Shown: positions 9,001 to 24,144, counted from the first letter of the stretch. The stretch is DNA of 25,017 nucleotides from a virus (IMGVR_UViG_3300008448_000586:1-25017); one strand, 5' to 3'. The notes: a model not told the origin generated them from the letters alone. Made by a program: numbers and translations.

Positions 9001-9892
9001 AACGATGGCAGTCGGTCGCCTGATGCGATCCATCGATTCGGTCCTGCGTGGAGTCGATCGCCAGATCATGCTGGTCGCATACAACGCGGCACTGAGTCAG
9101 TTGGAGCAGTCTGGTGCCACCGGCACTGCGCTGCTGGATGCGGCTGGCAAACTGGCTGAACGGTCTTTCCGTCACACGCAGAATGTCAGCGATCCTCTGG
9201 ACGATACGGTGTTCGCTGCAAACCAGAAGTTCAACCGTGGTATGGCTCGCGTGATGTTCCCATTCAGCAGCGATCCACTCAAGGCATTCAACCAGATGCG
9301 ACAGGCTTTCGGTTCTGGTGATGTCTCTCAGGTCGCTTCGACCAGCGGTGCGGTTGCAGCCAATATCGTGTGGAGTGCGGCGGTCAATCCGATCTGGACG
9401 GCAGCGGCGCTTGGCATTGCGGCGGCGTTCGATCCGGGCGATGATGACGAGGCAACTATCGAACTGCTGAGGAAGCGCGAAGGCGATGCAATGATCCGTC
9501 GTATGGCCGCTGATGCAGCCGGTGTGTCGGCTGGCTATGTTGGATTGCTGGCCTCTGGGATCATGGAAGCCATGATGTCTAACCCCCTGTACGCTTCGGA
9601 TGCTGGAGAGCCTCTTGCTATCCGTGCGATGGGAGACCTAGCGGTTGCTGTCGGAAGCGGCAAGTACGGTTCGGCACTGGCTACATCGCTGCAAATGGCT
9701 GGCGTGCCGGTGATCACTCCGGGTGGTCAGATCATCTCAACGATTGCGGCAGTAAGGCCGGATCGCGACAAGTTGCTCAGCCAGTATCGGTTGATGAAGA
9801 AGGAAGGCCGAATCACGCCGGAACAAGAGGACAGGTTGGCGGAACTCTTGCAAGAACAACGACTTGCGAAGTTGGCCGAGCAAGCCAAGTAA
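2..9892 (+). CDS. Giant phage internal-virion/ejection-type 'polyvalent' protein (>3285 aa, probably 5'-truncated by the window edge)
   Basis: The frame is open from base 2 (PGGKADTSQFG-M35) to TAA 9890-9892. It has an Ala/Gly-rich hydrophobic N-terminus, coiled coils, a zincin-like segment (EEALH), a WYE..SP..GxKTNSFYxNL..TMDMW..QVQAAIW domain, two ART-like domains (HFS.., VFHGT..WFT..VYL..GHDGI..PTQIKS), an EELQSDW domain and a helical C-terminal region typical of large virion proteins. Confidence 0.85.
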   Translation, partial: PGGKADTSQFGMRAIGGAVTGLAQEVATAPFLGAGPIIRELTTSADKTLTPERMMALGEASAQEFADRSSGGFMSQALYGATTSLTGKAAAIVRGTSMVAPGTGFEAFARGAQEVAAPRLDTVTTNVASAVTQGAASVGTYAIAGPWATAVSTFAEGAGAQMYQYEQEYLAGGLAKQKAGDELDRFDQYRSALLSGVVTSAFETYGGKMITGTVGRAVRKMDLKVANPVWQFTKPFIGGAGIEAFEEAGTQLVSEQAIPLVTKQKRPTINESAYNAMIAGLYGAVGGIGGTAAALPGAIAGRQQQIAQLNDRLRKSNTEYAQDDFWDKVAPAKVQSMMGMNQQEREAEIEATREAALQAIQARETLKQQAAMVQNERRAAEQDLAKARRKKKADLVTAAETKIADLTTQLDAMQQPLAVAAADAAAAELAYDASVAFMARNAAPVTTTVDDSLRTQNATAAQAKTDADNKALTELTNLGFDVQFFEGGNPNAPAYYDPAVPNTLFVRNGTTNVAEVMGIAYEEALHGIQYSDGRLWSELRQMPDESGVVESAARYFNEQANPEDIAAREALENVANPTGVSATPGQAVTRRYGSALNVSEGTANELRDGIETLFRTGEAPGLLGSVIARMGLRGRQAATAFRIRQKMLAAKSTRQRTGLSKFGTQLVEAKTGIQAREELKAEAQRRMAATSTTTAPAAPAAPATPSTPAGPVSPARARRSDIGHKREKATGRYVGAPDWVGGDPAKLKQLRKKLRQLATEGEAGRMWYENSSRAILKIAGGDIDEAEKIVALIAIYSPNATVPANTSMALTAYFQWKAGQAINAGFSKADAKAEAVLRKNEGWSGVKTNSFYQNLMVEIDPKRLDEGVATMDMWMALAFDYGDKALDQGPKYRFSEREIQRLADELGWKAHQVQAAIWTAMKGRIDPIRPALREEELKRGIGRMVEKTDPKTGKTTEVYEIAADRRYDHFKLAHQMGMEYALNTQDIESSKYDFSDAIEERMAQMSWETTPSTATGRSLPGIHRATLAQKQEYLRAMLDATTVNGKDAIADMVGLPQEYRIEGFSAWDSVIGAGMQSMYPVALEGAKAKRTIKPAAKEVLELIASIRGFVYEQDAVPYHTPIWDDSKIRHNGVQITSSRPFTADEMQMLYDGLIKQFGTNQLAPGYRLDGVRVLNFVDNLSNKDFQNGIKLVVDSLPDDFGGGMLTVGSFRSEGDYIYNDWTKDSNGEGYIQRITSRRPDLLTRVNDLRAVVERVNSDFASRYGWGPVTSYRGQRTGTVVSGSRGSRSAQAVFASNLRIASEYGTAIEGSSRPIRAIHFSAQPRTALKSRFYGTGMPGEERSYVRIKDRVYFYVDEGNGVVPEDMVGAHAHGVILRNVYSTSTDPLGLYSAADDKHDDDRTMWNAFERSVVRAGFDGIYVKSAQDEQGVVVLLGNHTVTPDYFGMERDLRGKSRAQKRPISADWQAVDVASYARERTDTPEFKAWFKDSKVVTALGTPRVVFHGTSKDVDFKSFRVGARGAWFTTDAEDAGFYAHENDSKSTKLEWDATRGRLIGRDINTASRIFPVYLSIQNPATITDQETNEMRMAENYPAVQRRVFEKYRLAGHDGIELPFPGGSVWVAFKPTQIKSIFNRGTFDVSQTNVSYARQRDETAPPAQFLSALREAIRSAQPVTGTSQMWSQWLRSMVNKGVVKQDELFWSGIEQWINLTPRKISKADLYDFLNKQGMQITTRSLLTKQDVPSNQAVDSRDLARYGPDLFPTQTLTAYPFSNYREHIMVIPQRRVDGGVTTGEQFQKQGATVDIIDWNPETKKAKFNIYFNNRMDFYGDGNVDPIFESEPTELDILNRYALRIAGTQRVSPSEQFTSSHHEFTSTPGQVVVHYRTTDREIDGKSYLFVEELQSDWAEKGRSLGFRTGTEKQELKRARDAQSQTRRILDTALTQQFYNAIDKLQAAILKSTASQMGEIPQDDGFNRVQRFKATLRNDIFDVLTQFNNNNWYQLTRLLQERAGRNAEYIFEQERIGGYFDLPDLKSFFTPRETDIIRRYAFTQSTYAGRFETTEKIQKRLPSGPFVKSTDQWVTLGLKQIIMQAVNEGYDGVAFINGAQSASRNEARGEAESVSYAPARTPQGDVIPNKYEIVSMVLGMPTGPAQNLSIEQISVAFGPDVVQMIQAGSGAQSAANADAKILGRPEGFTTRMVGGSQWFDYYDKIVRLNAQKLLRKIDGPEIKTVTLNGAYARDTQMAFDITNAMETKVRRGLTMFARARRGQESLAFQMGRRSGQVAGMMRGREQGIREGVTRQKAVELAKRREMRAKFAQRVQRFEDRIEQDSDKIAGLRDRMREMRELALDTRIRDRTAALDAARRKVLKAWFAGQSKGSQQGFNQAKREMVEMRRDALEIIKMLPKSMRSNYLNALTEMRTVTGISKIAQRVVQDLATADALDVVNQIGGMTKRVRKAGLRNDTRDDINGLLDSARSLLVTGQKRLLPFTTTVDLRNRTAAAIDLVEQAIGMYESERQEFRDSRDARSMEFDQDAGDLATTLAGQRGLPNERLASEAPRPGLARQIISGIGNLDIYSLMQRLEGSETGVLGKIWSGLIAGKDAMTKQRRRIDSRIDAALRRAGFDGYDGYAASAAGLYGDATAETVEVQIAGEMRRITVDQMMHLAALDDETVAGLRDESDPETPASPIVFATYRYEDPMYLTKQEQAAIVAGLSPEQRTLIAELKQLLETEIQPTLFEVHFQNVGKQPDRVVNYFPRQRLGDEVAGELVDVNLQPGQVVTGMLQNAGMLQTRVASRAPLVIGGMVRTLDGHIDEALRVIHLSAPLRHAVTVLRRRGVRANIERILGRGANDAIRKLVMNGAGMSGRPTGDIVETINSNISGAVLTMNPKTWIRQLGGAFRLMSEFPMQHWAAGMARTIALLPSDRARQIREIEDRNGYFYERHRRSQVGLFANVLGDPKAGREKWSAAIAAIGRALSTAGQDIAAGQWMRAATDVKQGTMAVGRLMRSIDSVLRGVDRQIMLVAYNAALSQLEQSGATGTALLDAAGKLAERSFRHTQNVSDPLDDTVFAANQKFNRGMARVMFPFSSDPLKAFNQMRQAFGSGDVSQVASTSGAVAANIVWSAAVNPIWTAAALGIAAAFDPGDDDEATIELLRKREGDAMIRRMAADAAGVSAGYVGLLASGIMEAMMSNPLYASDAGEPLAIRAMGDLAVAVGSGKYGSALATSLQMAGVPVITPGGQIISTIAAVRPDRDKLLSQYRLMKKEGRITPEQEDRLAELLQEQRLAKLAEQAK

Positions 9893-9893
9893 G

Positions 9894-9930
9894 CGTGAGG
9901 ATCCGTGAGGATCCGTGAGGATCCGTGAGG
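9894..9930. repeat. 10-bp tandem repeat (CGTGAGGATC)x3.7
   Basis: Read directly: cgtgaggatc cgtgaggatc cgtgaggatc cgtgagg, immediately after the stop of the giant ORF. Confidence 0.95.
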
Positions 9931-9957
9931 CTCTGCAAGAAATTTGATGATGCATTC

Positions 9958-9988
9958 TTGCATGTACGATACAAGTGTGTATGATGCA
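9958..9988 (+). promoter_or_regulatory. Sigma70-like promoter of the RHH gene with tandem TGTA-N3-TACA operators
   Basis: TTGCAT(9958-63)-16 bp-TATGAT(9980-85), ATG 7 nt downstream. TGTACGATACA at 9963-73 and TGTATGATGCA at 9978-88. Confidence 0.65.
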
Positions 9989-9992
9989 CACC

Positions 9993-10241
9993 ATGAGCAA
10001 GCGCAAGAAGAGTCAGGTTCCAGTGCACCGCAACACGCCGTTCGTTTATCTGGCGGTGCATAAGACCGTGGCAGACCGCATTCGATCTGCCGCATCAGCC
10101 AGCAAGACTCGCATATGCAATCTGCTGGAAGATTGGTGCAACAAGCAATTGCCTGCCGATGAACCGGGCACCGACGAACCGATCGTTGTGACGGGTCAAG
10201 GCGACTACCAGACTGTGATTCGACCCAGTGATCTCGCGTGA
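9993..10241 (+). CDS. Ribbon-helix-helix (Arc/MetJ/CopG-like) DNA-binding protein, 82 aa
   Basis: Basic N-terminus, then a strand FVYLAV, helix KTVADRIRSAASAS and helix RICNLLEDWCNKQL, the RHH pattern. Start taken at ATG 9993, just behind the -10 box. Confidence 0.6.
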   Translation: MSKRKKSQVPVHRNTPFVYLAVHKTVADRIRSAASASKTRICNLLEDWCNKQLPADEPGTDEPIVVTGQGDYQTVIRPSDLA

Positions 10242-10308
10242 GACGCTGAAATAAACAGGCCGCGCCAGCATGGTCGATGCGGACGCGGCCCGAAATTGGA
10301 GCATAATC

Positions 10309-11166
10309 GTGAACGAGTTTGAACCCACATATCCATGCGTGGTGCATGGACTTCCGGCATCAGTATACCACGGCATTGACGCAATGTCGTACAGCCGTCT
10401 CAAGACGCTGGATCAGGCGACACCGTCGCACCTGACCTACAACCTTGCAAATCCGTCAGACAGTGACGACTTTGTCGTCGGACGCGCATTGCATGCTTAT
10501 GTTCTTGAGCGGTCGAATTTCAACCATGAATTCGCCGTCGCGCCGCAGGTCGATCGACGCACCAAGGATGGGAAGGCCGCGTACGAAGCGTTCGTTTCCG
10601 CATCGCAGAACAAGACGGTGCTCAGTGCCGATCAGTTTGCAATGGTCGAGGACATGGCAGCGAGCGTGATGCAGCACGCTGACGCATATGCATTCGCGCA
10701 CACATTCCCCGGCAAGGCGGAAGTCAGTGCGTTTGCGATGATCAACGGCATCAAGACGAAGAGCCGGTTCGATCGTCTGGTCAATCTGGATGGCGAGGAT
10801 GTGATCGTGGACATCAAGACGACTCGCGACTTGGCAAGTCGTGAAGAGTTCGAGAACTCGATCTGGCGATATGGGTACGGAACGCAGTGCAACCTGTACC
10901 TTCAGATGGCTCGTGCAGTTGGCCTGAACCCGCGCCATTTCGTGTTCATCGTGATCGAGAAGAAGAAGCCACACAAGGTTGCTGTGTATAGAATGAGCGA
11001 CGAAGTCATCGAGATGTTTGATGGTCGCGTTCGTGAAATGACGAACAAGTACAAGGTGTTCCTCGATCATCCAGATCGTGGGTATGAGGGCATCTGCGAA
11101 ATTGGAGTCCCATCGTGGGCACTCCGTCGCCTTGAGAATGAGATTGGAGAATCCATCAATGTCTGA
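10309..11166 (+). CDS. RecE/exonuclease VIII-like PD-(D/E)XK exonuclease (DUF3799-type)
   Basis: Motifs YHGIDAMSYSRLK, GRALHAYVLE, KSRFDRL, IVDIKTT, YGTQCNLY, FVFIVIEK. GTG 10309 follows the RBS GAAATTGGAG. Confidence 0.88.
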   Translation: MNEFEPTYPCVVHGLPASVYHGIDAMSYSRLKTLDQATPSHLTYNLANPSDSDDFVVGRALHAYVLERSNFNHEFAVAPQVDRRTKDGKAAYEAFVSASQNKTVLSADQFAMVEDMAASVMQHADAYAFAHTFPGKAEVSAFAMINGIKTKSRFDRLVNLDGEDVIVDIKTTRDLASREEFENSIWRYGYGTQCNLYLQMARAVGLNPRHFVFIVIEKKKPHKVAVYRMSDEVIEMFDGRVREMTNKYKVFLDHPDRGYEGICEIGVPSWALRRLENEIGESINV

Positions 11167-12179: not shown

Positions 12180-12219
12180 GGGGGGTGAGGCTCGACGGTG
12201 CCTCACCCCCCTTTCATTT
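12180..12219 (+). terminator. Rho-independent terminator
   Basis: 12-bp stem GGGGGGTGAGGC/GCCTCACCCCCC, 8-nt loop, followed by TTTCATTT, 10 nt after the annealase stop. Confidence 0.8.
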
Positions 12220-14317: not shown

Positions 14318-15052
14318 TCAGGACATCCTGCCTGCGATCTTCGATCCTGAAGCCTTCTGCTTCGTCTTGTTCATCCGATAGCGCACAACGGACTGTGGCT
14401 CACGAGCCGATGCGGTGTTGTCGGTCAGGGTCTTGGCTGTGTCGGATGGTCGAATGCCCTTCCGGCCCCACTGGTCGCACGCATAGCGCCATGCATCACG
14501 AATGGTGGCATCATCGCATCCGACCTTAGACAACTTGCTGACCAGATACTTGCGCTGCCGTTCGACGACATCGGCCAGCGAATGCGCAGGCTCGCGGTCA
14601 GCGATCCGTTGCATCGCCGCCTCTGAAATCAAACCCTCCCCCACCCCCTCCCCGACAGGGGAGGTTGTAGTTGTGGTTGTAGTTGTGGTTGTGGCACAGT
14701 CACTGTCACAGTCACTGTGGCTGTTACTGCGACGGTCATTGACCCGTTGAATGTGGGCGCGGCGCTTCTCAGCGATCTGATTACTGCGTGCCTTCTCGGC
14801 CAGCAGCCGGGGGTGTGCCCAGCCATCAGAGTGGCGAACGAGACGGCGCATGATGCACTCCCAATCCACGCCAACAGACCCGCCAGCGATTCGATCTCTG
14901 GATGCGGCATCGTCGGGAATAAATCCACTCAGCCACTGGTGACTGAGCAGTCGGATGTATGCGCCAGCCGTAGCGGGCGACATGTCCAGCGTGCTAGCGA
15001 GGAAATCGCCGGGGTAGAACGCAAACCACGGCAGTCGATTCGGTATACTCAT
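14318..15052 (-). CDS. Phage replication initiator, DUF1376/YdaU-type N-terminal domain
   Basis: LPWFAFYPGDFLASTLDMSPATAGAYIRLLSHQW..IPDD, then HPRL..EK, a low-complexity linker (SDCDSDC, poly-Thr) and a helical C-domain. Confidence 0.78.
   Translation of the reverse strand: MSIPNRLPWFAFYPGDFLASTLDMSPATAGAYIRLLSHQWLSGFIPDDAASRDRIAGGSVGVDWECIMRRLVRHSDGWAHPRLLAEKARSNQIAEKRRAHIQRVNDRRSNSHSDCDSDCATTTTTTTTTTSPVGEGVGEGLISEAAMQRIADREPAHSLADVVERQRKYLVSKLSKVGCDDATIRDAWRYACDQWGRKGIRPSDTAKTLTDNTASAREPQSVVRYRMNKTKQKASGSKIAGRMS
14664..14718. repeat. Short tandem repeats inside the initiator gene: (GTTGTR)x5 and (CACAGTCACTGT)x2
   Basis: Read directly at 14664-14693 and 14695-14718. Confidence 0.85.
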
Positions 15053-17015: not shown

Positions 17016-17393
17016 TCAAGCGGCCAGTTCAAGTTGAGAAATCAGCCCCATCTTTCGGCCACGAGCCGTGATGGTCACTTCGACTGCGTGCCGGTCATTC
17101 ATCCCGTTGTCGAGGTGCAGAATCCAGACGGTTCCGTAGCCCTTGGCCTTCGGCATGCGCGATGTCGGTGCCCAGAATGAACATGGGAACTTCCATTCCT
17201 TGCACAGCATCTTGGATGTCTTCGATGGCATGCGGAAACGGAAGTCGATCGAGAACTTCTCGTCGATGTCATCGCTCGAATGCCCGAACCACTCGCGATC
17301 GATGCGGATCCAACCGGCATCGACCAGCAGCGTGATCATGTCCTCGGATACGGATCGAATGTCTTCGATCAGGTTCAGCGAACTTAGTGGCAT
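17016..17393 (-). CDS. Hypothetical early protein, 125 aa
   Basis: ATG 17393 lies 5 nt after the conserved AGAAATTGGAGA leader. Confidence 0.75.
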   Translation of the reverse strand: MPLSSLNLIEDIRSVSEDMITLLVDAGWIRIDREWFGHSSDDIDEKFSIDFRFRMPSKTSKMLCKEWKFPCSFWAPTSRMPKAKGYGTVWILHLDNGMNDRHAVEVTITARGRKMGLISQLELAA

Positions 17394-17398
17394 GGTTC

Positions 17399-17456
17399 TC
17401 TCCAATTTCTGCCGGGTTGACCGGCTACAGGTTAGTGCATCCCGCGACGGTGCGGG
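17399..17456 (-). promoter_or_regulatory. Conserved early-gene leader, copy A
   Basis: Sense strand: CCCGC-ACCGTC-GCGGG ATGCACTAACCTGTA GCCGG-TCAAC-CCGGC AGAAATTGGAGA. Confidence 0.8.
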
Positions 17457-17491
17457 GCAGGCCAGCCCTTAGGCTGGCGAGCCGGGAACCG

Positions 17492-17695
17492 TCAGGACCA
17501 TGTGCTCACGATCATTCCCGTGTTCGTGATCGCACGCTGGAGGCGCTTGATCGAGATGACCCAGCCATGAGGCTTCCACGCCCATGCCTGCCTGATCGCG
17601 TCGTCCTCGTCGATCGCCCAGCAGTAGAACATCTCGCTGCGAGGCGAACCGTCCGACCCGATGATCAACCTGAATTCGTTCTTCTTGTCGTCCAC
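17492..17695 (-). CDS. Hypothetical early protein, 67 aa
   Basis: GTG 17695 lies 5 nt after GAAATTGGAGA. Confidence 0.7.
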   Translation of the reverse strand: MDDKKNEFRLIIGSDGSPRSEMFYCWAIDEDDAIRQAWAWKPHGWVISIKRLQRAITNTGMIVSTWS

Positions 17696-17700
17696 TGTGA

Positions 17701-17739
17701 TCTCCAATTTCGAGTTGCTGAATCCTGCAACGGCGCAGG
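17701..17739 (-). promoter_or_regulatory. Conserved early-gene leader, copy B (lacks the second hairpin)
   Basis: Sense strand: CCTGC-GCCGTT-GCAGG ATTCAGCAACTC GAAATTGGAGA. Confidence 0.72.
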
Positions 17740-17742
17740 CTA

Positions 17743-17766
17743 GGTGGCCCTCCGAAGAGGACCACC
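17743..17766 (-). other. Stable cUUCGg stem-loop after the DUF932 stop (no U-tract)
   Basis: Sense strand GGTGGTCCTC-TTCG-GAGGGCCACC. Confidence 0.6.
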
Positions 17767-17779
17767 GTAGCCAGCGTCG

Positions 17780-18784
17780 TCAAGCGACGAGCGCAGCAGC
17801 CGCCTCGTATGCGGCCTTGTTGAGATCTCCGGCGGTGCCGAAGAGCACACTGTCCAACCTACGCGAAGCGTCCTGCTTCTCGTTGCGCACCGTGCGCTCG
17901 TGGTTGGCGTCCTGCGTGACCGCGTTGAGCGCCGCCCAGACCGAGCCGCTCGTGCTCACGCCGGTCTGGCGCTTGTCGTCGCGGAAGTTCGCCAGCCACT
18001 GGGACACCTCACCGGCGTACTTCTGGGCACGGCGGCTCTTGGGGTTCTTGATGTCCTCGTCGGTCAGGCGACCGTTCGCACGCTGCCACACACTCGTGAA
18101 GAACGCCTGCAACTGCGCCTCAGTGATGCCCTGTTCGGCCATGCGGATGGCCGTCGCGCCGTACGCCTTGATCGACGCGGTCGGACCGGCCAGCCACTCG
18201 CGCACCTTCGCCAGACGCTGCTCTGCGCTGGCCGTGTGCTTGATCTTCACGCAATCGCCGTTCATCTCGCGCATCGCGATGGCGTGCGTGTTCGCGCAGA
18301 CGACGCGGGTCGCGATCGCCCCGATGGTCAGGCTCATGCTCAGGTCGTGCCCGCCGCCGATGAACAGATAGGGCTTGATCTTGTCGTCCGCAGCCGCGTA
18401 GATCGTGCCCATGTCCACGAGGAACCACACCTTGCGGCCACCGCGCAGAGACCCGGCGGTCTCGACTGCGCGATCGCTGAAGTTGCTGATCTCGTACGCC
18501 AGATCCGCGATCTCGGCATTCTGGATCGGCTGGTAGCCGTCCTTGCACGCCGCGAACGCCTCGCCGGTGTCGCTGCGGACCACCAGCCGGTTGTCGCCGC
18601 CGTCCACCGTGCGGCCATCGGTCAGGGTCGCGGTGACCGGGGCCACCTCGACCGTCCACTCCAGCCGCGCCGTCTTCAGCGCGGTGATCGCGTCGGTGCG
18701 GGTCGGGAGCACGGTGCCGAGACCGTGCCAAGCCTTGGTTCCGGCGAGCATGAGGTGGTCAGTGGCTTCGATGTGATGTGCCAT
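17780..18784 (-). CDS. DUF932 family phage/plasmid protein, 334 aa
   Basis: AWHGLG..ARLEWTV..RSDTG..YQPIQN..ETAGSLRGGRKVW..HD.S..RVVCANT..KHT..WAALNAVT. ATG 18784 follows the conserved leader. Confidence 0.88.
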   Translation of the reverse strand: MAHHIEATDHLMLAGTKAWHGLGTVLPTRTDAITALKTARLEWTVEVAPVTATLTDGRTVDGGDNRLVVRSDTGEAFAACKDGYQPIQNAEIADLAYEISNFSDRAVETAGSLRGGRKVWFLVDMGTIYAAADDKIKPYLFIGGGHDLSMSLTIGAIATRVVCANTHAIAMREMNGDCVKIKHTASAEQRLAKVREWLAGPTASIKAYGATAIRMAEQGITEAQLQAFFTSVWQRANGRLTDEDIKNPKSRRAQKYAGEVSQWLANFRDDKRQTGVSTSGSVWAALNAVTQDANHERTVRNEKQDASRRLDSVLFGTAGDLNKAAYEAAAALVA

Positions 18785-18791
18785 GTGAGTG

Positions 18792-18854
18792 TCTCCAATT
18801 TCTGGCCCTGAGGGCCGGGGTTGAGTGAGGTCGAGACTCGACGGTGAGCCTCGA
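18792..18854 (-). promoter_or_regulatory. Conserved early-gene leader, copy C
   Basis: Sense strand: TCGAGGCTC-ACCGTC-GAGTCTCGA CCTCACTCAACCCC GGCCC-TCA-GGGCC AGAAATTGGAGA. Confidence 0.82.
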
Positions 18855-18857
18855 TGC

Positions 18858-18889
18858 TGTACGGTACACCATGTATCGTACAGAGTCAA
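18858..18889 (-). promoter_or_regulatory. Sigma70-like early promoter with two TGTA-N3-TACA operators
   Basis: TTGACT(18889-84)-17 bp-TACCGT(18866-61). Palindromes TGTACGGTACA 18858-68 and TGTATCGTACA 18872-82. Confidence 0.75.
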
Positions 18890-18918
18890 GAACTATCTGG
18901 ACAATTTCCAGACGGATT

Positions 18919-18952
18919 CTTGGGAGGCCACCCCTAAGGGTGGCGACCCAAG
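18919..18952 (-). terminator. GC-rich stem-loop, possible terminator or processing stem
   Basis: CTTGGG-AG-GCCACCC-CTAA-GGGTGGC-GA-CCCAAG, 10 nt after the stop at 18963. No U-tract. Confidence 0.45.
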
Positions 18953-18962
18953 CCCCCGCCGG

Positions 18963-19346
18963 TCAGGCAGGCTGGGACTGCACTCCGAAACGGTGGTAGC
19001 ACAGGCGCTTCAGGACATCGCGCAAGGTGCGGGTGTTCTCGTCGATCCGCTGCTTCAGGTGCTTGATCTGATCATGCAGCCAGAGTTCCGATTCGCGCTC
19101 CGCATCGTGCATGAGCGCCATAGCCGCCTTCGCGTGCGTCAGGCTCACTGCGGCGTTGCGGAAGGTGGGGTACAGGTCGTCGTCCACCTGCGATCGGTCT
19201 TCCCCGACCATCAGGTCGAAGGTGCTGCCCACGAACATGAGCACGGTGGACTGGCGATCTTCCTTGCTGGGGATGAGAGCGATGTTCTCGATGATGCAGA
19301 TGATCTGCTCGATGCGGGCGAGGTTGTAGTTCTGGGGCAGTGACAT
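18963..19346 (-). CDS. Hypothetical early protein, 127 aa
   Basis: ATG 19346 (MSLPQNY...) follows the conserved leader. Confidence 0.75.
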   Translation of the reverse strand: MSLPQNYNLARIEQIICIIENIALIPSKEDRQSTVLMFVGSTFDLMVGEDRSQVDDDLYPTFRNAAVSLTHAKAAMALMHDAERESELWLHDQIKHLKQRIDENTRTLRDVLKRLCYHRFGVQSQPA

Positions 19347-19351
19347 GGGTG

Positions 19352-19407
19352 TCTCCAATTCTGGGCCGGTGGCCCTTGGGTTGAGTGTCATCCTGCGACG
19401 GTGCAGG
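19352..19407 (-). promoter_or_regulatory. Conserved early-gene leader, copy D
   Basis: Sense strand: CCTGC-ACCGTC-GCAGG ATGACACTCAACCCAA GGGCC-ACC-GGCCC AGAATTGGAGA. Confidence 0.82.
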
Positions 19408-19449
19408 GGATCGGGGCGCGACTGCCGTGCGCCCGTCACCCTTGAATCG

Positions 19450-19827
19450 TCAGGCAGCGGCCACCTTGGGCTTGCTGTACCGCACTGCGGCCAGCGCGTC
19501 ACGCTCGATCTGCTTCGCGATGCCGGAGAGCCACTTGGTGCGGGTCTGGGCTGGGAAGACATTCGTCTCCAGACCCATGTGGGCCTCCAGCACCTCGCGG
19601 GTGAGCGCCTCGGACATCTCCGGCTGCTCGTCGAGCCGGTTGAGCACGGCGAGGCGGAACTGCCACTCGTCGATGTTCTTCGGGGTGATCGTGCCCATGC
19701 CGACCGCCATCGTCAGCCAGATCAGGTTGTGGGTGGTTCCGCGCAGTTCATCCACCCCGGGTTCAACTTCGCGCAGGCAGACGGTGCGGTAGTCAGCGAT
19801 CTTCGACAGGTTCCAGTTCAGGCTCAT
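19450..19827 (-). CDS. Hypothetical early protein, 125 aa
   Basis: MSLNWNLSKI..LIWLTMAVGMGTITPKNIDEW..R..HMGLETNV. Follows the conserved leader and a promoter. Confidence 0.8.
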   Translation of the reverse strand: MSLNWNLSKIADYRTVCLREVEPGVDELRGTTHNLIWLTMAVGMGTITPKNIDEWQFRLAVLNRLDEQPEMSEALTREVLEAHMGLETNVFPAQTRTKWLSGIAKQIERDALAAVRYSKPKVAAA

Positions 19828-19833
19828 GTGAGT

Positions 19834-19870
19834 TCTCCAATTCTGCCCCTGTGGGGCTTCGGGTTGAGTG
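19834..19870 (-). promoter_or_regulatory. Conserved early-gene leader, copy E (starts directly at a promoter, no ACCGUC hairpin)
   Basis: Sense strand: CACTCAACCCGAA GCCCC-ACA-GGGGC AGAATTGGAGA. Confidence 0.8.
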
Positions 19871-19902
19871 TGTATTGTACAGAGTGATCAGTGAGTTGTC
19901 AA
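19871..19902 (-). promoter_or_regulatory. Near-consensus sigma70 promoter with one operator over the -10 box
   Basis: TTGACA(19902-897)-17 bp-TACAAT(19879-74). TGTATTGTACA at 19871-81. Confidence 0.85.
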
Positions 19903-19930
19903 GTACCTGATTCCTGAGTTGCTGCGTGGG

Positions 19931-20158
19931 TCAGTTCCACTCGATGATGTTGTTCACGATGCTGACGGTGTAGTCGCGACCGTCCTCGACGCGGCGCTGA
20001 TGAGCGACGCGGGCGGAGTCTTCGTGGTGGGTCTTCAGGATCACTTCCTCGTTGCCGTATGTGTCGCGGGCGACGACCCAGAACGGGGCGCGGTTCTTGA
20101 TCGTGCGGCACTGCACGGGCTTGCTGCGGCCACCCCAGATGATCGATGCGTTCTTCAT
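19931..20158 (-). CDS. Hypothetical early protein, 75 aa
   Basis: ATG 20158 lies 5 nt after the conserved leader. Confidence 0.72.
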   Translation of the reverse strand: MKNASIIWGGRSKPVQCRTIKNRAPFWVVARDTYGNEEVILKTHHEDSARVAHQRRVEDGRDYTVSIVNNIIEWN

Positions 20159-20163
20159 GGCTG

Positions 20164-20217
20164 TCTCCAATTTCTGCCCCTGTGGGGCTGTGTTGCGTTG
20201 TCCTGCGACGGTGCAGG
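20164..20217 (-). promoter_or_regulatory. Conserved early-gene leader, copy F
   Basis: Sense strand: CCTGC-ACCGTC-GCAGG ACAACGCAACACA GCCCC-ACA-GGGGC AGAAATTGGAGA. Confidence 0.82.
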
Positions 20218-20254
20218 CCGTCCCGCCCCCGGAGGGGCGGTGGGGCGCGATCCG

Positions 20255-20338
20255 TCAGGGACGCGAGGCTGCGTAGATGGCGAGGGGGATTCCGACGAAC
20301 ACGAGCAGGATCGCGATGGTGGTGATGGTGGGCATCAT
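20255..20338 (-). CDS. 27-aa single-pass membrane peptide (not in the ORF track)
   Basis: AGAAAGGA RBS, 7 nt, then MMPTITTIAILLVFVGIPLAIYAASRP*. Fills the gap between two early genes. Confidence 0.65.
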   Translation of the reverse strand: MMPTITTIAILLVFVGIPLAIYAASRP

Positions 20339-20356
20339 GGTGTGGTCCTTTCTGGT

Positions 20357-20728
20357 TCAGGAGATGCGGGTAGACACGATCGGTGCCTTGGCCTTGATTA
20401 GCGTGTTGCGAATGCCGTCCAAGGTCTCGTTGCCGTTGCGGCGGAACATGTTCAAGTCCTCAGCGTCCGCTGCGCAGCATTGTTCGGCAATGTGCTTGAG
20501 TGCCTCGATGTGGTACAGCAGGGACGCAGCCGTGGTTCCGGTGATGATCTCGAAAGCCTTGGCCCAGACGGTCGCCACCTTCATCTGGTTGATTTCATTC
20601 CAGATGTCGGATGAACCTCGAAGGGCACAATCCTCTGACCAGTTGTGGCTGATGTTGAACATGCGATACTCAAGGTTCTTCGACAGAATCTCAATCTGGC
20701 TGCTTGCGAACTGGTTCTTGGTCTTCAC
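20357..20728 (-). CDS. Hypothetical early protein, 123 aa (first gene of the leftward module)
   Basis: GTG 20728 lies 5 nt after the conserved leader. Confidence 0.72.
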   Translation of the reverse strand: MKTKNQFASSQIEILSKNLEYRMFNISHNWSEDCALRGSSDIWNEINQMKVATVWAKAFEIITGTTAASLLYHIEALKHIAEQCCAADAEDLNMFRRNGNETLDGIRNTLIKAKAPIVSTRIS

Positions 20729-20733
20729 TGGTG

Positions 20734-20790
20734 TCTCCAATTTCTGCTGGCCTTGCCAGCCCTTGTTGCGTTGCCAGCCACGCGGCTGAC
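20734..20790 (-). promoter_or_regulatory. Conserved early-gene leader, copy G
   Basis: Sense strand: GTCAGCC-GCGT-GGCTGGC AACGCAACAAGG GCTGGC-AAG-GCCAGC AGAAATTGGAGA. Confidence 0.78.
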
Positions 20791-20793
20791 ATG

Positions 20794-20824
20794 AGTACTG
20801 TACACCCTGTATCGTACTTGTCAA
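20794..20824 (-). promoter_or_regulatory. Sigma70-like early promoter with two operators
   Basis: TTGACA(20824-19)-16 bp-TACAGT(20802-797). AGTACTGTACA 20794-804 and TGTATCGTACT 20808-18. Confidence 0.78.
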
Positions 20825-20963
20825 ATCAATTACTTCAACAAACCAACCAGATTGTTGGCAATAAAGTCGCAAGTGCAGCATTTACCTATGTTTCTGGAGC
20901 CGAGAAATTTCTGAGCATGTGCCCAGATGACACCGGCCACAGGGTTCTGGTAGGGTTGAAACC

Positions 20964-21428
20964 ATGAGCGAAGCACAGCAGCCAGTGAAGCGTGGACGAG
21001 GCAGACCACGCAAGGAACAGGCACACGAAATTGCGGCATGTAAAGAGCGGTGGTTGCAGGAGTTCCGTGCTCATGGCTGGAACCGTGCTTGCGAGATCGT
21101 TGGCATCAGCACGCACACTCCCTCGTCGTGGCGCGGCAGCGACCCGGCCTTCCGCGCTGCGCACGATGCCCTGAACCCGCTCATCGCCGACGGGCTGGAG
21201 CGCATGATCGAAGAGGTGCTGACAGGCAAGCGCCAGATGGACAAGGTGCAGATGACCCTGCTGATCTTCCGGCTGAAGGCGCTGCGACCGGCCCTGTACC
21301 GCGAGCGGTGGAGTGTCGAGCACAGCGGCCCAGACGGCCAGCCCATCAAGGTCGAGACCAACGGCGACCAGCAGCGCGGCATGGATCTGCTCCAGCAGTG
21401 GGGCGGTCGGCTCGCTGGCAAGAACTGA
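20964..21428 (+). CDS. terS: Terminase small subunit
   Basis: AT-hook-like GRGRPRK, HTH (RACEIVGISTHTPSSWRGSDPAF), LLIFRLKALRPALYRE and EHSGPDGQPI. Directly upstream of TerL. Confidence 0.8.
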   Translation: MSEAQQPVKRGRGRPRKEQAHEIAACKERWLQEFRAHGWNRACEIVGISTHTPSSWRGSDPAFRAAHDALNPLIADGLERMIEEVLTGKRQMDKVQMTLLIFRLKALRPALYRERWSVEHSGPDGQPIKVETNGDQQRGMDLLQQWGGRLAGKN

Positions 21429-21454
21429 ACAACCCAGCAGCACCCCTCCCCCCT

Positions 21455-23194
21455 GTGACCAAGCAGCCCCGACCGGAAGCACGCTCGCTCGTCACGATGC
21501 GAGAGCGGGTGCTGCGGGCTACACCAGCCGAACAGGCCCACCTGCGTGCGGCGTTTGCAGCGTCATTCCCCGCATGGTGCGAGGCCACGGCGTGGACCTA
21601 CCGTGTCAAGAACATCGACCCAGAGACGGGGCGCGAGATCCCAGCAGCGCAGATGCATGTGCCCTTCACCCTGTGGCCCTGCCAAGTCGAGGCCAGCGAG
21701 GCCATCATCGACGCGATCAGCAAGGGCGAAGACTGCGTGATCCGCAAGAGCCGAGACATGGGTGCATCGTGGCTCCTCGTGGGAATCGCAGCGTGGGGCT
21801 GGCTCTTCCACGGCTGGCAGTCCCTGCTGGTCAGCCGCGTCGAAGACCTCGTGGACCGCACCGGCGACCCAGACACGCTCTTCTGGAAGGTGGACTACCT
21901 GCTCGCCTCCCAGCCGGAGTGGCTGCTACCGGCCACGCCCAAGGCGCTGGAGAAGGGCGGCGAACTGCGGCAGCACATGATGCTCCGGCACCCCACGAGT
22001 GGGGCGACCATCGCAGGCCAAGCCAGCACGGAGCACATCGGGCGCGGTGGTCGTCGCACGCTGGTGATCTTCGACGAGTTCGCTGCCCTCGACCATGCCG
22101 ACGCAGCGTGGCGCAGCGCAGCCGACTGCACCTCGTGCCGCATCGCCAACAGCACGCCCATCGGGGCAGGCACGGAGTACGCCCGCCTCGTCAGCACAGC
22201 CCGGACGCAGGGATCGCCCCGGCTGGTGGAACTGATGTACTGGCAGCACCCAGAGAAGGGCGCAGGCCAGCAGGACCGCGAAGACACGGACGGTGCCATC
22301 ACCGGCATGGCAGGGGCGCAGTACATCTGGACCCCGTGGTTGCAGGACCAGTTGAAGCGCCGCGACCGGATCGACCTGTGCCAGAATGTCTTCGCCGAGT
22401 CGATCGGCAGCGGGCAGGCGTTCTTCAGCAGCCACGCCGTCACCCAGCACCGGGAGGACCACGCCAAGCCTGCGGTGCGGTGCGAGTTCAGCCGGGGCAA
22501 GATGGTGCCCAGTCCCAGCGGCAGGTGGCGGGTATACCAGCAGCCGACACGGGCGGCGGAGTATGTCTGCTTCATGGACCCGGCGTACGGTACAGGCGCA
22601 GCCAACAGCGCCGTGTGCATCATGGACGCTGAGACCCGCACGGTGGTGGCCGAGTTCATCGACCCCAACATCGCCACCTACGACCTTGCCTTGGAGGTCG
22701 CCCAGATCCTGCGGCGCGTCTACAGGGGGCGGAGGGAGGCTCTGGTGGGGTGGGAGACCAACGGACCCGGCGCTGCCCTCCAGCACGACTTCGAGCGGGC
22801 CAACTACAAGACGATCTACCGGCAGCGTCAGACTGGCACCAAGCAGGAGGAGAAGACCATGCGGGTGGGCTGGACCAGCACCAAGCGCACCAAGCGGGTG
22901 TTGCTAGGTGGACTGGCGCGTGCACTGGCGCAGGGTGAAGTGGTCATCTCCAGCGCGGACTGCCTCGACGAGATGCTGGAGTACATCGTGCTGGACGACG
23001 GGAGCATCGAGGCTGGTTCAAGGCGAGACGATTCGAGCGGCGCACGAGAATCTCATGGCGACCGCGTCATAGCCACCGCTGGAGCACTTATGCTATGCGA
23101 CGAGGGTGTTGGTGAGCCAGCGTCGGCCCCCCTGTACGAAGAGAACACTCTTGGTGCTATCTTGAACCACGAGGAGATCATGCGTGGCGACTAA
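21455..23194 (+). CDS. terL: Terminase large subunit (start uncertain: GTG 21398, GTG 21455 or ATG 21497)
   Basis: LWPCQ adenine motif, Walker A KSRDMGASW, GRGGR..VIFDEFA Walker B, STPIG coupling motif, nuclease motifs FMDPAYGTG, WETNGPG and HGDRVIA. Confidence 0.92.
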   Translation: MTKQPRPEARSLVTMRERVLRATPAEQAHLRAAFAASFPAWCEATAWTYRVKNIDPETGREIPAAQMHVPFTLWPCQVEASEAIIDAISKGEDCVIRKSRDMGASWLLVGIAAWGWLFHGWQSLLVSRVEDLVDRTGDPDTLFWKVDYLLASQPEWLLPATPKALEKGGELRQHMMLRHPTSGATIAGQASTEHIGRGGRRTLVIFDEFAALDHADAAWRSAADCTSCRIANSTPIGAGTEYARLVSTARTQGSPRLVELMYWQHPEKGAGQQDREDTDGAITGMAGAQYIWTPWLQDQLKRRDRIDLCQNVFAESIGSGQAFFSSHAVTQHREDHAKPAVRCEFSRGKMVPSPSGRWRVYQQPTRAAEYVCFMDPAYGTGAANSAVCIMDAETRTVVAEFIDPNIATYDLALEVAQILRRVYRGRREALVGWETNGPGAALQHDFERANYKTIYRQRQTGTKQEEKTMRVGWTSTKRTKRVLLGGLARALAQGEVVISSADCLDEMLEYIVLDDGSIEAGSRRDDSSGARESHGDRVIATAGALMLCDEGVGEPASAPLYEENTLGAILNHEEIMRGD

Positions 23195-23423
23195 GAGAAA
23201 GCGTGGCCCCAGTCTTTCGGTGGGCCGTGGAGAGAAACTGTCGGTGAAGGCGGGCGGTGGGCTGACGGCGAAGGGTCGGGCCAAGTACAACCGGGCAACC
23301 GGGTCGAACCTCAAGGCACCGACGAAGGACAAGAACAACCCGCGCCACAAGTCGTTCTGTTCGCGAAGCAAGTCATGGAGTGGTCCGCGAGGCAAGGCCG
23401 CACGCAAAAGGTGGGGATGCTGA
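23184..23423 (+). CDS. Small basic phage protein (resembles DUF6321), 79 aa
   Basis: GGLTAKGRAKYNRATGSNLKAP..KSFCSR..AARKRWGC. GAGGAG RBS, overlaps the TerL stop. Confidence 0.75.
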   Translation: MATKRKRGPSLSVGRGEKLSVKAGGGLTAKGRAKYNRATGSNLKAPTKDKNNPRHKSFCSRSKSWSGPRGKAARKRWGC

Positions 23424-23424
23424 T

Positions 23425-23553
23425 ATGAAGAACTCTCTGGTTGGCAACATCAATCGTCGCAAGAAGTTGGGTATCAGCCGTCCCAAGTCGAAGTCCACGG
23501 TGAGCAAGAAGTCTTATGCCGCAATGAAGCGCGGCTGGAAGAAGAGCAAGTAA
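23425..23553 (+). CDS. Lys-rich peptide, 42 aa
   Basis: MKNSLVGNINRRKKLGISRPKSKSTVSKKSYAAMKRGWKKSK*. Starts 1 nt after the previous stop. Confidence 0.7.
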   Translation: MKNSLVGNINRRKKLGISRPKSKSTVSKKSYAAMKRGWKKSK

Positions 23554-23663
23554 TGCCGAAGGTAGGAAAGAAGAAGTTCCCGTACACGAAGAAGGGCAAG
23601 GCTGCTGCCAAGTCCTACGCAAAGAAGACTGGCAAGAAGATGTCCAAGAGGATGGGCTACTGA
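23553..23663 (+). CDS. Lys-rich peptide, 36 aa
   Basis: MPKVGKKKFPYTKKGKAAAKSYAKKTGKKMSKRMGY*. TAATG coupling. Confidence 0.75.
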   Translation: MPKVGKKKFPYTKKGKAAAKSYAKKTGKKMSKRMGY

Positions 23664-23797
23664 TGCCATTCAAGAGCAAGGCACAGCAGGGCTTTATGTT
23701 CGCCACCATGCCGAAGACGGCAAAGAAGATGGCGAAGAAGACGAAGAACATGAAGCGTCTCCCGGCGCGAGTCAAGAAGAAGGGAGGTCGCAAGTGA
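23663..23797 (+). CDS. Lys-rich peptide, 44 aa
   Basis: MPFKSKAQQGFMFATMPKTAKKMAKKTKNMKRLPARVKKKGGRK*. TGATG coupling. Confidence 0.75.
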   Translation: MPFKSKAQQGFMFATMPKTAKKMAKKTKNMKRLPARVKKKGGRK

Positions 23798-23832
23798 AGA
23801 AGGGCAAGAAGAAGGGCGGCAAGAAGTGCTGA
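23794..23832 (+). CDS. 12-aa Lys/Gly micro-peptide MKKGKKKGGKKC
   Basis: GGAGGT RBS at 23783-88 and GTGA overlap with the upstream stop. Confidence 0.5.
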   Translation: MKKGKKKGGKKC

Positions 23833-24029
23833 TCCGCTGCAACGGCGACATCCTGATCCCACTGTCCCGCATTTCCAAGTGCGAGGACAAGGGGTCTGAG
23901 GTGTTGATCTGGGCGGATGGCTGTTCGTACCACGCCACCGGCGAGAATGCAAAGGTCGTGCAGGCGATGGTTGGGAAGATCCAGAAGACAGGAAAGAAGG
24001 CAACCAATGAAGGCCAAGAAGGCAAGTAA
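23826..24029 (+). CDS. Hypothetical protein, 67 aa
   Basis: GTG start overlapping the micro-peptide stop. Fits the operon. Confidence 0.6.
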   Translation: MLIRCNGDILIPLSRISKCEDKGSEVLIWADGCSYHATGENAKVVQAMVGKIQKTGKKATNEGQEGK

Positions 24030-24144
24030 GAAGGGCGGTTCTGCAAAGAGTCGTCGCGGCATCCACAACCATGACAGGGGTGCAAAGGGTGGAGGCAAGG
24101 GCGGCGGAATGGGTGGTGGAATGGGTGGCGGCTACAGGCGCTGA
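24007..24144 (+). CDS. Lys/Gly-rich peptide, 45 aa
   Basis: MKAKKASKKGGSAKSRRGIHNHDRGAKGGGKGGGMGGGMGGGYRR*. AAGAAGG RBS, ends 3 nt before the portal ATG. Confidence 0.6.
   Translation: MKAKKASKKGGSAKSRRGIHNHDRGAKGGGKGGGMGGGMGGGYRR

Follow-up and report, generated by a model that had tools for sequence, protein, structure and literature searches.

Intercistronic cassettes with two predicted RNA folds as candidate processing sites between small genes of an uncultured tailed phage

The 25,017-nucleotide (nt) stretch IMGVR_UViG_3300008448_000586:1-25017 (hereafter the window) carries seven related leader cassettes, lettered A to G here by increasing coordinate, on the minus strand ahead of small, presumably early genes. 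These leaders had been predicted to form an RNA system built around a hairpin, P3, that abuts the ribosome-binding site (RBS). We find that the conserved unit is not P3 but a different hairpin, P2, together with a long irregular hairpin, X, in which an arm upstream of P2 is predicted to pair with it in the cassettes that lack a promoter. The upstream arm covaries with its P2 half. A unit of this composition points to processing and stabilization of the message more than to a translation enhancer. We propose, with evenly poised confidence, that the cassettes are RNase III sites of the T7 type whose putative cleavage would release a 5'-terminal protective hairpin, and that they also act as joints for gene swapping.

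A hairpin with a constrained loop and an arm predicted to pair with it

P2 was recognized when a repeat search revealed a second repeat family upstream of four of the copies. It is a hairpin of 5-7 base pairs (bp) with a variable stem and an R(N)YGU(Y) loop, present in six of the seven window copies and in relatives down to about 53% terminase identity. The loop reads ACCGUC in cassettes A, C, D and F, GCCGUU in B and GCGU in G, and cassette E has no P2. Relatives were gathered via the DUF932 gene, the terminase and DNA patterns, to which eight longer records were added.

When hairpins were selected by promoter only, 20 of 37 dereplicated promoters (105 loci) proved to be followed by a hairpin that begins 3-12 nt past the -10 box, mostly at 5-9 nt. 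R(N)YGU(Y) occupies 14 of these 20 loops compared with 305 of 11336 hairpins overall, although the motif was set after some copies in this test were already known. Among unrelated DUF932 phages (89 loci), the motif is found in 5 of 12 promoter hairpins, four of them from one family, versus 120 of 7393. Leaders picked by RBS and G-poor linker only contain the loop word in 66 of 161 cases, and at least four of the five flanking pairs form in 30, compared with 2.5 (maximum 8) in 300 shuffles. An alignment of 32 pentaloop copies contains double changes in all seven pairs (63 cells; score 0.72 versus 0.17 shuffled), which demonstrates diversity of the stem rather than pairing because the rows were chosen for pairing. 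Non-canonical cells in the stems, read on the sense strand, comprise two G-U and seven A-C, and a U-tract follows P2 in none of 63 copies. A covariance model (R2, 31 positions) has a best window E-value of 0.16, with chance matches mixed among true copies, and its matches in relatives are mostly members of the training set.

Hairpins of related appearance were also seen elsewhere. In five unrelated DUF932 phages (L174, L175, L214, L231 and L234), early promoters are likewise followed by a hairpin at about +1, whose loop is often of the A...GU type, and promoter-proximal P2 may therefore be far more widespread. Separately, the exact P2 of cassettes D and F precedes an RBS and start codon in three other phage contigs (L011, L015 and L016), where the upstream stems differ.

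In cassettes A, B, D and F, termed internal, the exact starting point is the in-frame UGA that closes the upstream gene; a GC-rich stem, P1, and then P2 follow. For all four, folding predicts one long and irregular hairpin, X, with the sequence 3' of the stop codon paired to the loop and 5' strand of P2 (z -2.6 to -4.1). Without the upstream arm, the same RNAs fold P2, except that for F the minimum-energy fold differs and the centroid shows P2. A wider set was assembled from 92 rows, from which 33 internal and 28 promoter-proximal P2 copies were chosen by eye and window copies A and G were added; the remaining rows were duplicates, coding, opposite-strand or unassignable.

Across the resulting 34 internal cassettes, X is predicted to span 14-26 bp (median 19), to reach the P2 loop in 32, and to be interrupted one to five times by an internal loop or bulge in every copy. 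It starts within 12 nt of the stop of an open reading frame (ORF) in 31 copies, and 1-3 nt past the first base of the stop codon in 22. The P1 loop, which can be UUCG, UACG, UCCG or GCGA among others, lies 10-16 nt from the start of P2. With 60 nt of upstream sequence, P2 is predicted in 6 of the 34 internal copies, and with 2 nt in 33, whereas 28 of 29 promoter-proximal copies fold P2 either way. A wider folding window favours P2 in 9 of 34 internal copies, window A included. Neither predicted fold hides the RBS.

Pairing between the upstream arm and its cognate P2 half is stronger than that between permuted partners, at -11.7 versus -7.3 kcal/mol (0 of 20000 permutations; 22 copies dereplicated at 60% identity; P1 base included). 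This gain is absent from 23 promoter controls. The narrower duplex between stop arm and loop gives -6.2 versus -4.9 kcal/mol permuted (0 of 2000; 33 copies, not dereplicated). In seven orthologous D cassettes, one position of this helix is G-C in four, A.C in two and A-U in one, and P1 holds two compensated pairs.

The hairpin P3 and the ribosome-binding site word

The seven structured leaders themselves are as first described. All lie on the minus strand with TTGGAG and a start codon downstream (TTGGAG at 20740, 20170, 19840, 19358, 18798, 17707 and 17405), and each heads an open frame of 67-334 amino acids (aa). All seven contain AATTGGAG, for which base composition predicts 0.03 copies in 17300-20900. 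A perfect P3 of 5-6 bp, with the stems listed originally, ends 3-4 nt before ATTGGAG in six of the seven and is missing from B; such hairpins occur at 331 of 7138 window positions (4.6%) and in 0.1-3% of shuffles of the six leaders. Pairing is maintained through differing stems, but these amount to three types rather than six, since E and F are identical and C and D are near mirror images. The plus-strand leader of the exonuclease VIII-like gene (10226..10311), also noted at the outset, has a P2-like GCGU-loop hairpin over the stop of a ribbon-helix-helix (RHH) ORF (10232-10243), an A-rich linker, the long stem (10258-10290), GAAATTGGAG (10292-10301) and a GTG start (10309). Its orthologue in the related record G042 forms a 10-bp stem with the same GCGU loop.

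The proposal of a structured, modular cis-acting RNA without an Rfam match is borne out. Rfam 15 returned one chance match elsewhere in the window at E<=5 and none on 18 related stretches (284 kb, L305 left out), and the literature searched, mostly open-access papers, does not describe the element. The choice of P3 and RBS as its core is wrong, because P3 is restricted to the closest relatives. In related loci, P3 precedes 22 of 47 ATTGGA-type RBSs but 2 of 67 CTGGAG and 2 of 36 CCGGAG, which are the RBS words in the same leaders of phages at 53-72% terminase identity. TTGGAG also stands ahead of two genes without P3 (11144, plus; 15867, minus). To the features first listed we add the upstream P2, the long X hairpin, three sigma70-type promoters and an operator.

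Conservation had been said to extend well beyond the Shine-Dalgarno (SD) sequence. However, AGAAA-UU-GGAG forms 5 bp and then, across a 2-nt bulge, another 4 bp with a typical 16S tail (-7.5 to -8.2 kcal/mol), where the tail comes from a stand-in phylum and may not be that of the host. The sample comprised 41 genomes from the phylum of a Gemmatimonas metagenome-assembled genome (MAG); 16 of them matched and 8 of these supplied the tails, with six of eight loci in agreement. In relatives the slot is filled by AGAUUGGAG, AGAAAUGAG or plain AGAAGGAG, of which AGAAGGAG or AGAAAUGAG also occurs after P3, and gene F2 of the same array uses the unbulged AGAAAGGA.

These features can be compared with the start-associated sequence (SAS) and extended SAS (ESAS) of cluster K mycobacteriophages (PMC3203893; this and the other published systems are compared on the part of each source that was available). 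In both systems the RBS of non-structural genes bears a conserved word, which in some cases is preceded by an inverted repeat. The mycobacteriophage elements are fixed in sequence, SAS as a 13-mer and ESAS as an inverted repeat of 17 bp, whereas here the stems keep pairing and lose sequence, and the word varies in relatives. Nine of the 11-12 positions of the word pair with the typical tail, the UU bulge being unpaired. A role for P3 as an insulator was not supported. Shuffling P3 caused no consistent fall in predicted SD access: accessibility with P3 is higher in three of six leaders and lower in three.

Proposed processing and its alternatives

In the processing model, the cassettes would punctuate a long early message. 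Host sigma70 RNA polymerase would initiate at promoters G, E and C, and in the G and C transcripts a 5'-terminal P2 would shield against 5'-end-dependent decay. The promoterless genes F, D, B and A would be transcribed by read-through, and their intergenic RNA is predicted to form an irregular X of about 19 bp, which begins at the upstream stop codon, takes in P1, extends as far as the P2 loop and hides P2. Host RNase III would introduce a nick into X close to an internal loop, on the 3' strand and some 10-16 nt away from the apical loop, after which the upstream message would retain a 3' hairpin and the downstream piece would refold with P2 at its new 5' end, as in primary transcripts. The G-poor linker and extended SD would support efficient initiation, with P3 as a local add-on. 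The linker-P3-RBS repeat would double as a crossover point for gene swaps, and one chimeric cassette is consistent with this role.

Parts of this scheme have precedents. In phage T7, an interrupted hairpin, R1.1, separates the early genes 1.0 and 1.1 (PMC6121014), and internal loops confine the RNase III cut to one strand, leaving protective 3' hairpins (PMC1540722). X likewise lies between early genes and is a long, irregular stem-loop extending over about two turns, and its internal loops could likewise limit a cut to one strand and leave the upstream message a 3' hairpin. Unlike R1.1, the cassettes have a 3' strand with a covarying second fold, P2, of the same kind as at primary 5' ends, their X is 79% G-C and more interrupted, the array has internal promoters, and cleavage is putative. 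In the Staphylococcus aureus cspA 5' untranslated region (UTR), an RNase III cut in a long leader hairpin leaves a shorter hairpin at the 5' terminus and improves both the stability and the translation of the message (PMC3386247), and a comparable outcome would be expected here. However, cspA is a single host gene with a long regular hairpin rather than a repeated intercistronic phage cassette. Bacillus subtilis RppH requires unpaired 5' bases (PMC3997798), and RNase III sites have been noted in the host-takeover module of phage SPO1 (PMC3896407).

If correct, the processing model would extend T7-style punctuation of early messages to a large, uncultured, high-GC phage clade. A single sequence would serve as the lower stem of a processing site before the cut and as a 5' protective hairpin after it, processed and primary messages would share a 5' structure, and small early genes could be swapped without loss of expression. 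The two folds yield sharp predictions for the cut position and for compensatory rescue.

Several observations weigh against this model. Escherichia coli RNase III favours an 11-bp helix with A-U pairs at positions 2-4 of the proximal box (PMC1540722; for the A-U preference also PMC6212723), whereas 529 of 666 X pairs (79%) are G-C and an unbroken 11-bp helix is found in 1 of 34 copies (median 8), with the provisos that the E. coli enzyme may not match that of the host and that R1.1 is itself interrupted. X and P1 plus P2 mostly differ by a few kcal/mol, and the number of copies favouring P2 shifts with the folding window (9/34 versus 6/34). In only 5 of 22 rows does the cognate P2 half rank first among all partners. 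The model leaves unexplained why the same loop occurs in promoter-proximal P2, which has no upstream arm, and copy E has no P2. The RNase III cut and the processed 5' ends are themselves products of the model. Finally, since the copies are related, their counts do not represent independent events; the internal set, moreover, was chosen by eye.

A loop that is kept while its stem varies freely (double changes in 7/7 pairs), even without an upstream arm, would also fit a binding site for a host or phage protein acting as translation activator, repressor or antiterminator. P2 would then always be exposed after promoters. We regard this main rival to processing as rather unlikely. In internal cassettes X would hide P2 until a ribosome terminating at the upstream stop melted the arm, coupling genes across gaps of 60-100 nt without a cut. 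This arrangement agrees with the closeness of X to the stop codon, past whose first base it starts by 1-3 nt in 22 of 34 copies. P2 might in that case be an uncatalogued protein-recognized hairpin and a clade-wide tag of early expression, and the stem that sequesters it might open only on upstream ribosome termination or RNase III cutting, as a two-state intercistronic switch linking neighbours over long gaps; we consider this possible, though rather unlikely. A P2 loop that binds a protein would constitute a new regulatory motif.

The closest parallel for such a site is provided by the 5' UTR motifs of Aca1 and Aca2 and by the RHH protein Aca14 (PMC13551039). Aca1 RNA motifs lie directly after the transcription start site and stop about 20 nt short of the start codon, and Aca motifs are found in intergenic positions too. 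Cassettes C and G share the operator over the promoter and the hairpin directly after the start site; the distance of about 20 nt, the intergenic copies and an RHH gene nearby are further likenesses. In contrast to those systems, no anti-CRISPR (acr) or helix-turn-helix aca gene was identified, P2 has a wider distribution than the operator and RHH, which occur only in the near sub-clade, and Aca14 has no RNA motif; the likeness drawn here is one of arrangement. ANTAR target RNAs (PMC3369931) resemble the four ACCGUC copies, but not B or G, in being small hairpins with a six-base loop bearing A1 and G4. They differ in that P2 is a single such hairpin, with loops of 4-6 nt (4-5 in the most distant copies) and no overlapping terminator. 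A second ANTAR hairpin 5-12 nt away was not found, the neighbours P1 and P3 having other loops.

No early protein of the window and no regulator is common to all P2-bearing phages. An RHH gene occurs in one of eight records, as well as in L205, while P2-type hairpins occur in all eight, although a diverged homologue could escape notice. A P2 binder would thus be host-derived or very diverged. The RBS is free in both folds and the loop length varies from 4 to 6 nt, which also argue against a protein site. One orthologous terminator has such loops in three of seven variants, and part of the loop bias may therefore be a general loop preference.

It is unlikely that there is neither switch nor cut, such that P1, lacking a U-tract, serves for pausing or 3' protection, P2 and P3 stabilize the RNA in a generic way, and the copies resemble one another through duplication and recombination. 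The latter would follow the promoter(early) stem-loop (PeSL) cassettes of promoter, stem-loop and SD that mediate shuffling in T4-type phages (PMC2839356). Cassettes do persist here although tblastn against 13 relatives, several of them partial, gave no match for genes G, F2 and B and one each for D and E, while terminases match. In relative L090 an F-type cassette runs into an E gene, with the join within P3/RBS, and E and F have one common P3 sequence in the window, which is not the case in L091. However, recombination by itself does not predict an upstream arm that tracks the P2 half in diverged cassettes, nor the narrow spacing from P1 to P2, and the stems of different copies are too dissimilar to be accounted for by homology alone.

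The likeness to PeSL (PMC2839356, PMC4122927) extends to repeated intergenic promoter, stem-loop and SD modules beside variable ORFans, with crossovers between -10 and ATG, and gene gain, loss and swapping do occur at the cassettes. Unlike PeSL, four of seven cassettes lack a promoter (those of C, E and G have sigma70-type promoters), the P2 loop is constrained and has an alternative fold, and the lack of a U-tract (0/63) gives no indication of terminator activity. By analogy, the cassettes would combine the working of a T7 early processing signal with that of a PeSL-like shuffling cassette, with cleavage presumed and the promoters and terminators of PeSL only partly or not represented.

We consider it very unlikely that the cassettes are self-cleaving RNAs or relics of a type I hammerhead, as might be suggested by CUGACGA at the 5' end and GUC in the P2 loop. 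Two intact type I hammerheads (1506 and 2553, minus), both scoring below the Rfam gathering thresholds, lie ahead of RBSs in the unrelated phage L041. One of them has in common with cassette A the CUGACGA word, a stretch of 8 nt and the ACCGUC/GCGGG junction. Each predicted 3' product in L041 folds into a 5'-terminal hairpin, the same logic as that of the processing model. However, the pattern that found L041 fixed most of the shared letters. The GAAA core and conserved stem I are missing from the window copies, CUGA.GA is missing from distant cassettes, and all three stems occur in 1 of 44 pattern matches. Among 307 loci scanned, none of those from the clade contained a hammerhead, and there was no Rfam match.

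The original view that P3 and AGAAAUUGGAGA form a dedicated translation enhancer or protein-binding leader now seems highly improbable: P3 does end 16-19 nt before the start codon in 6/6 leaders and keeps pairing through different sequences, but it is limited to the near sub-clade, its loops are unconstrained (ACA, GCA, TCA, AAG, ACC, AAGA, AAAA), 16S pairing accounts for the RBS, and no gain in SD access is predicted.

Two further candidates were discarded. Mimicry of an operator half-site by the P2 loop is out, given that the middle bases of the 3' half vary (CCG, CAG, TCG, TGG, ATG) and P2 exists without an operator. An attC-like or DNA-hairpin promoter is out, given that covariation is absent from the outer arms and that the sense strand is the one with UNCG loops, although the two G-U versus seven A-C cells of P2 stems are a contrary point.

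Cassette layout and genomic setting

The cassettes separate eight small, fast-turning-over ORFs (G, F2, F, E, D, DUF932, B and A; 17016..20728, minus), a leftward array that adjoins the small terminase gene. On the minus strand, cassette G (20726..20824) comprises a sigma70-type promoter (20824-20797), an operator 5' half (20817-20808), P2 at about +1 (20790-20773), an A/C linker, P3 (20760-20746), the RBS and a GTG start (20728). Cassette F (20156..20257) runs from the in-frame stop of a 28-aa ORF (20341-20255) through X, predicted to bury P2 (20217-20202), to the linker, P3 (20188-20176), RBS and ATG (20158). Cassette E (19825..19902) has a strong sigma70-type promoter (TTGACA-17-TACAAT, 19902-19874), the linker, P3 (19857-19845), RBS and ATG (19827). 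Cassette D (19344..19452) starts at the stop of gene E and contains X, P2 (19407-19392), linker, P3 (19375-19363), RBS and ATG (19346).

Just 3' of the gene D stop, a fifth X-type hairpin is predicted on the same strand (18905..18965; 7+6+5 bp with two 2x2 loops), with no P2 alternative. Cassette C (18782..18889) follows, with a promoter (TTGACT-17-TACCGT, 18889-18861), an operator 5' half (18881-18872), a 9-bp P2 (18854-18831) that begins 6 nt past the -10 box, linker, P3 (18816-18804), RBS and the ATG (18784) of DUF932/TIGR03299. Cassette B (17693..17782) runs from the DUF932 stop through X with a UUCG loop and P2 (17739-17724) to the RBS and a GTG (17695). Cassette A (17391..17494) runs from the stop of gene B through X, P2 (17456-17441), linker and P3 (17425-17411) to the RBS and ATG (17393). 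No terminator was called within 17300-20900.

A 23-bp operator with two GTA-NNN-TAC halves overlaps promoters C (18859-18881) and G (20795-20817) on the minus strand. Its 5' half recurs as a third half (9964-9973) at a plus-strand promoter, TTGCAT-16-TATGAT, ahead of an 83-aa RHH-like ORF (9990-10241; whole unit 9958..10241). This ORF scores 0.94 to RHH clusters in the atlas and gives a low-confidence beta-alpha-alpha model, and operator and RHH co-occur in G042 and L205. The protein is probably an autoregulated repressor of promoters C and G, like Aca14.

The 25-kb window is a piece of a tailed phage, about 64% complete, with a terminase (20964-23194), a portal (from 24148), the exonuclease VIII-like gene near 10.3 kb and a RusA-like gene. 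We infer that the array genes are early from their strong sigma70-type promoters and from gene content. Their part in host takeover is presumptive: DUF932/TIGR03299 alone has a family match above the curated cut-off. A scan of eight proteins for defence families gave no match. No close cultured phage was found, the best matches being at about 33% identity or less. The sole lead to a host, a 2.5-kb contig with 56% terminase identity in the Gemmatimonas MAG, is too weak for assignment.

A strong intrinsic terminator lies 3' of a recombinase-like gene (12180-12211, plus). Its loop contains the complement of the P2 loop and its minus strand resembles the P2 of cassette C; by sequence, a loop-loop contact with the early leaders is conceivable. 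Elsewhere in the window, an ORF of >3290 aa with an open 5' end and no NCBIfam match (2-9892, plus) presumably encodes a large virion or ejected polyvalent protein. Directly 3' of its stop is a short tandem repeat of about 3.5 copies of a 12-nt unit (9893-9931, plus). Very small lysine-rich ORFs cluster between terminase and portal (23184-24144, plus), and the ORF of a DUF1376 primosomal-type protein (14318-15052, minus) contains a poly-Thr stretch and short Asp/Ser/Cys repeats in the region 14730-14680.

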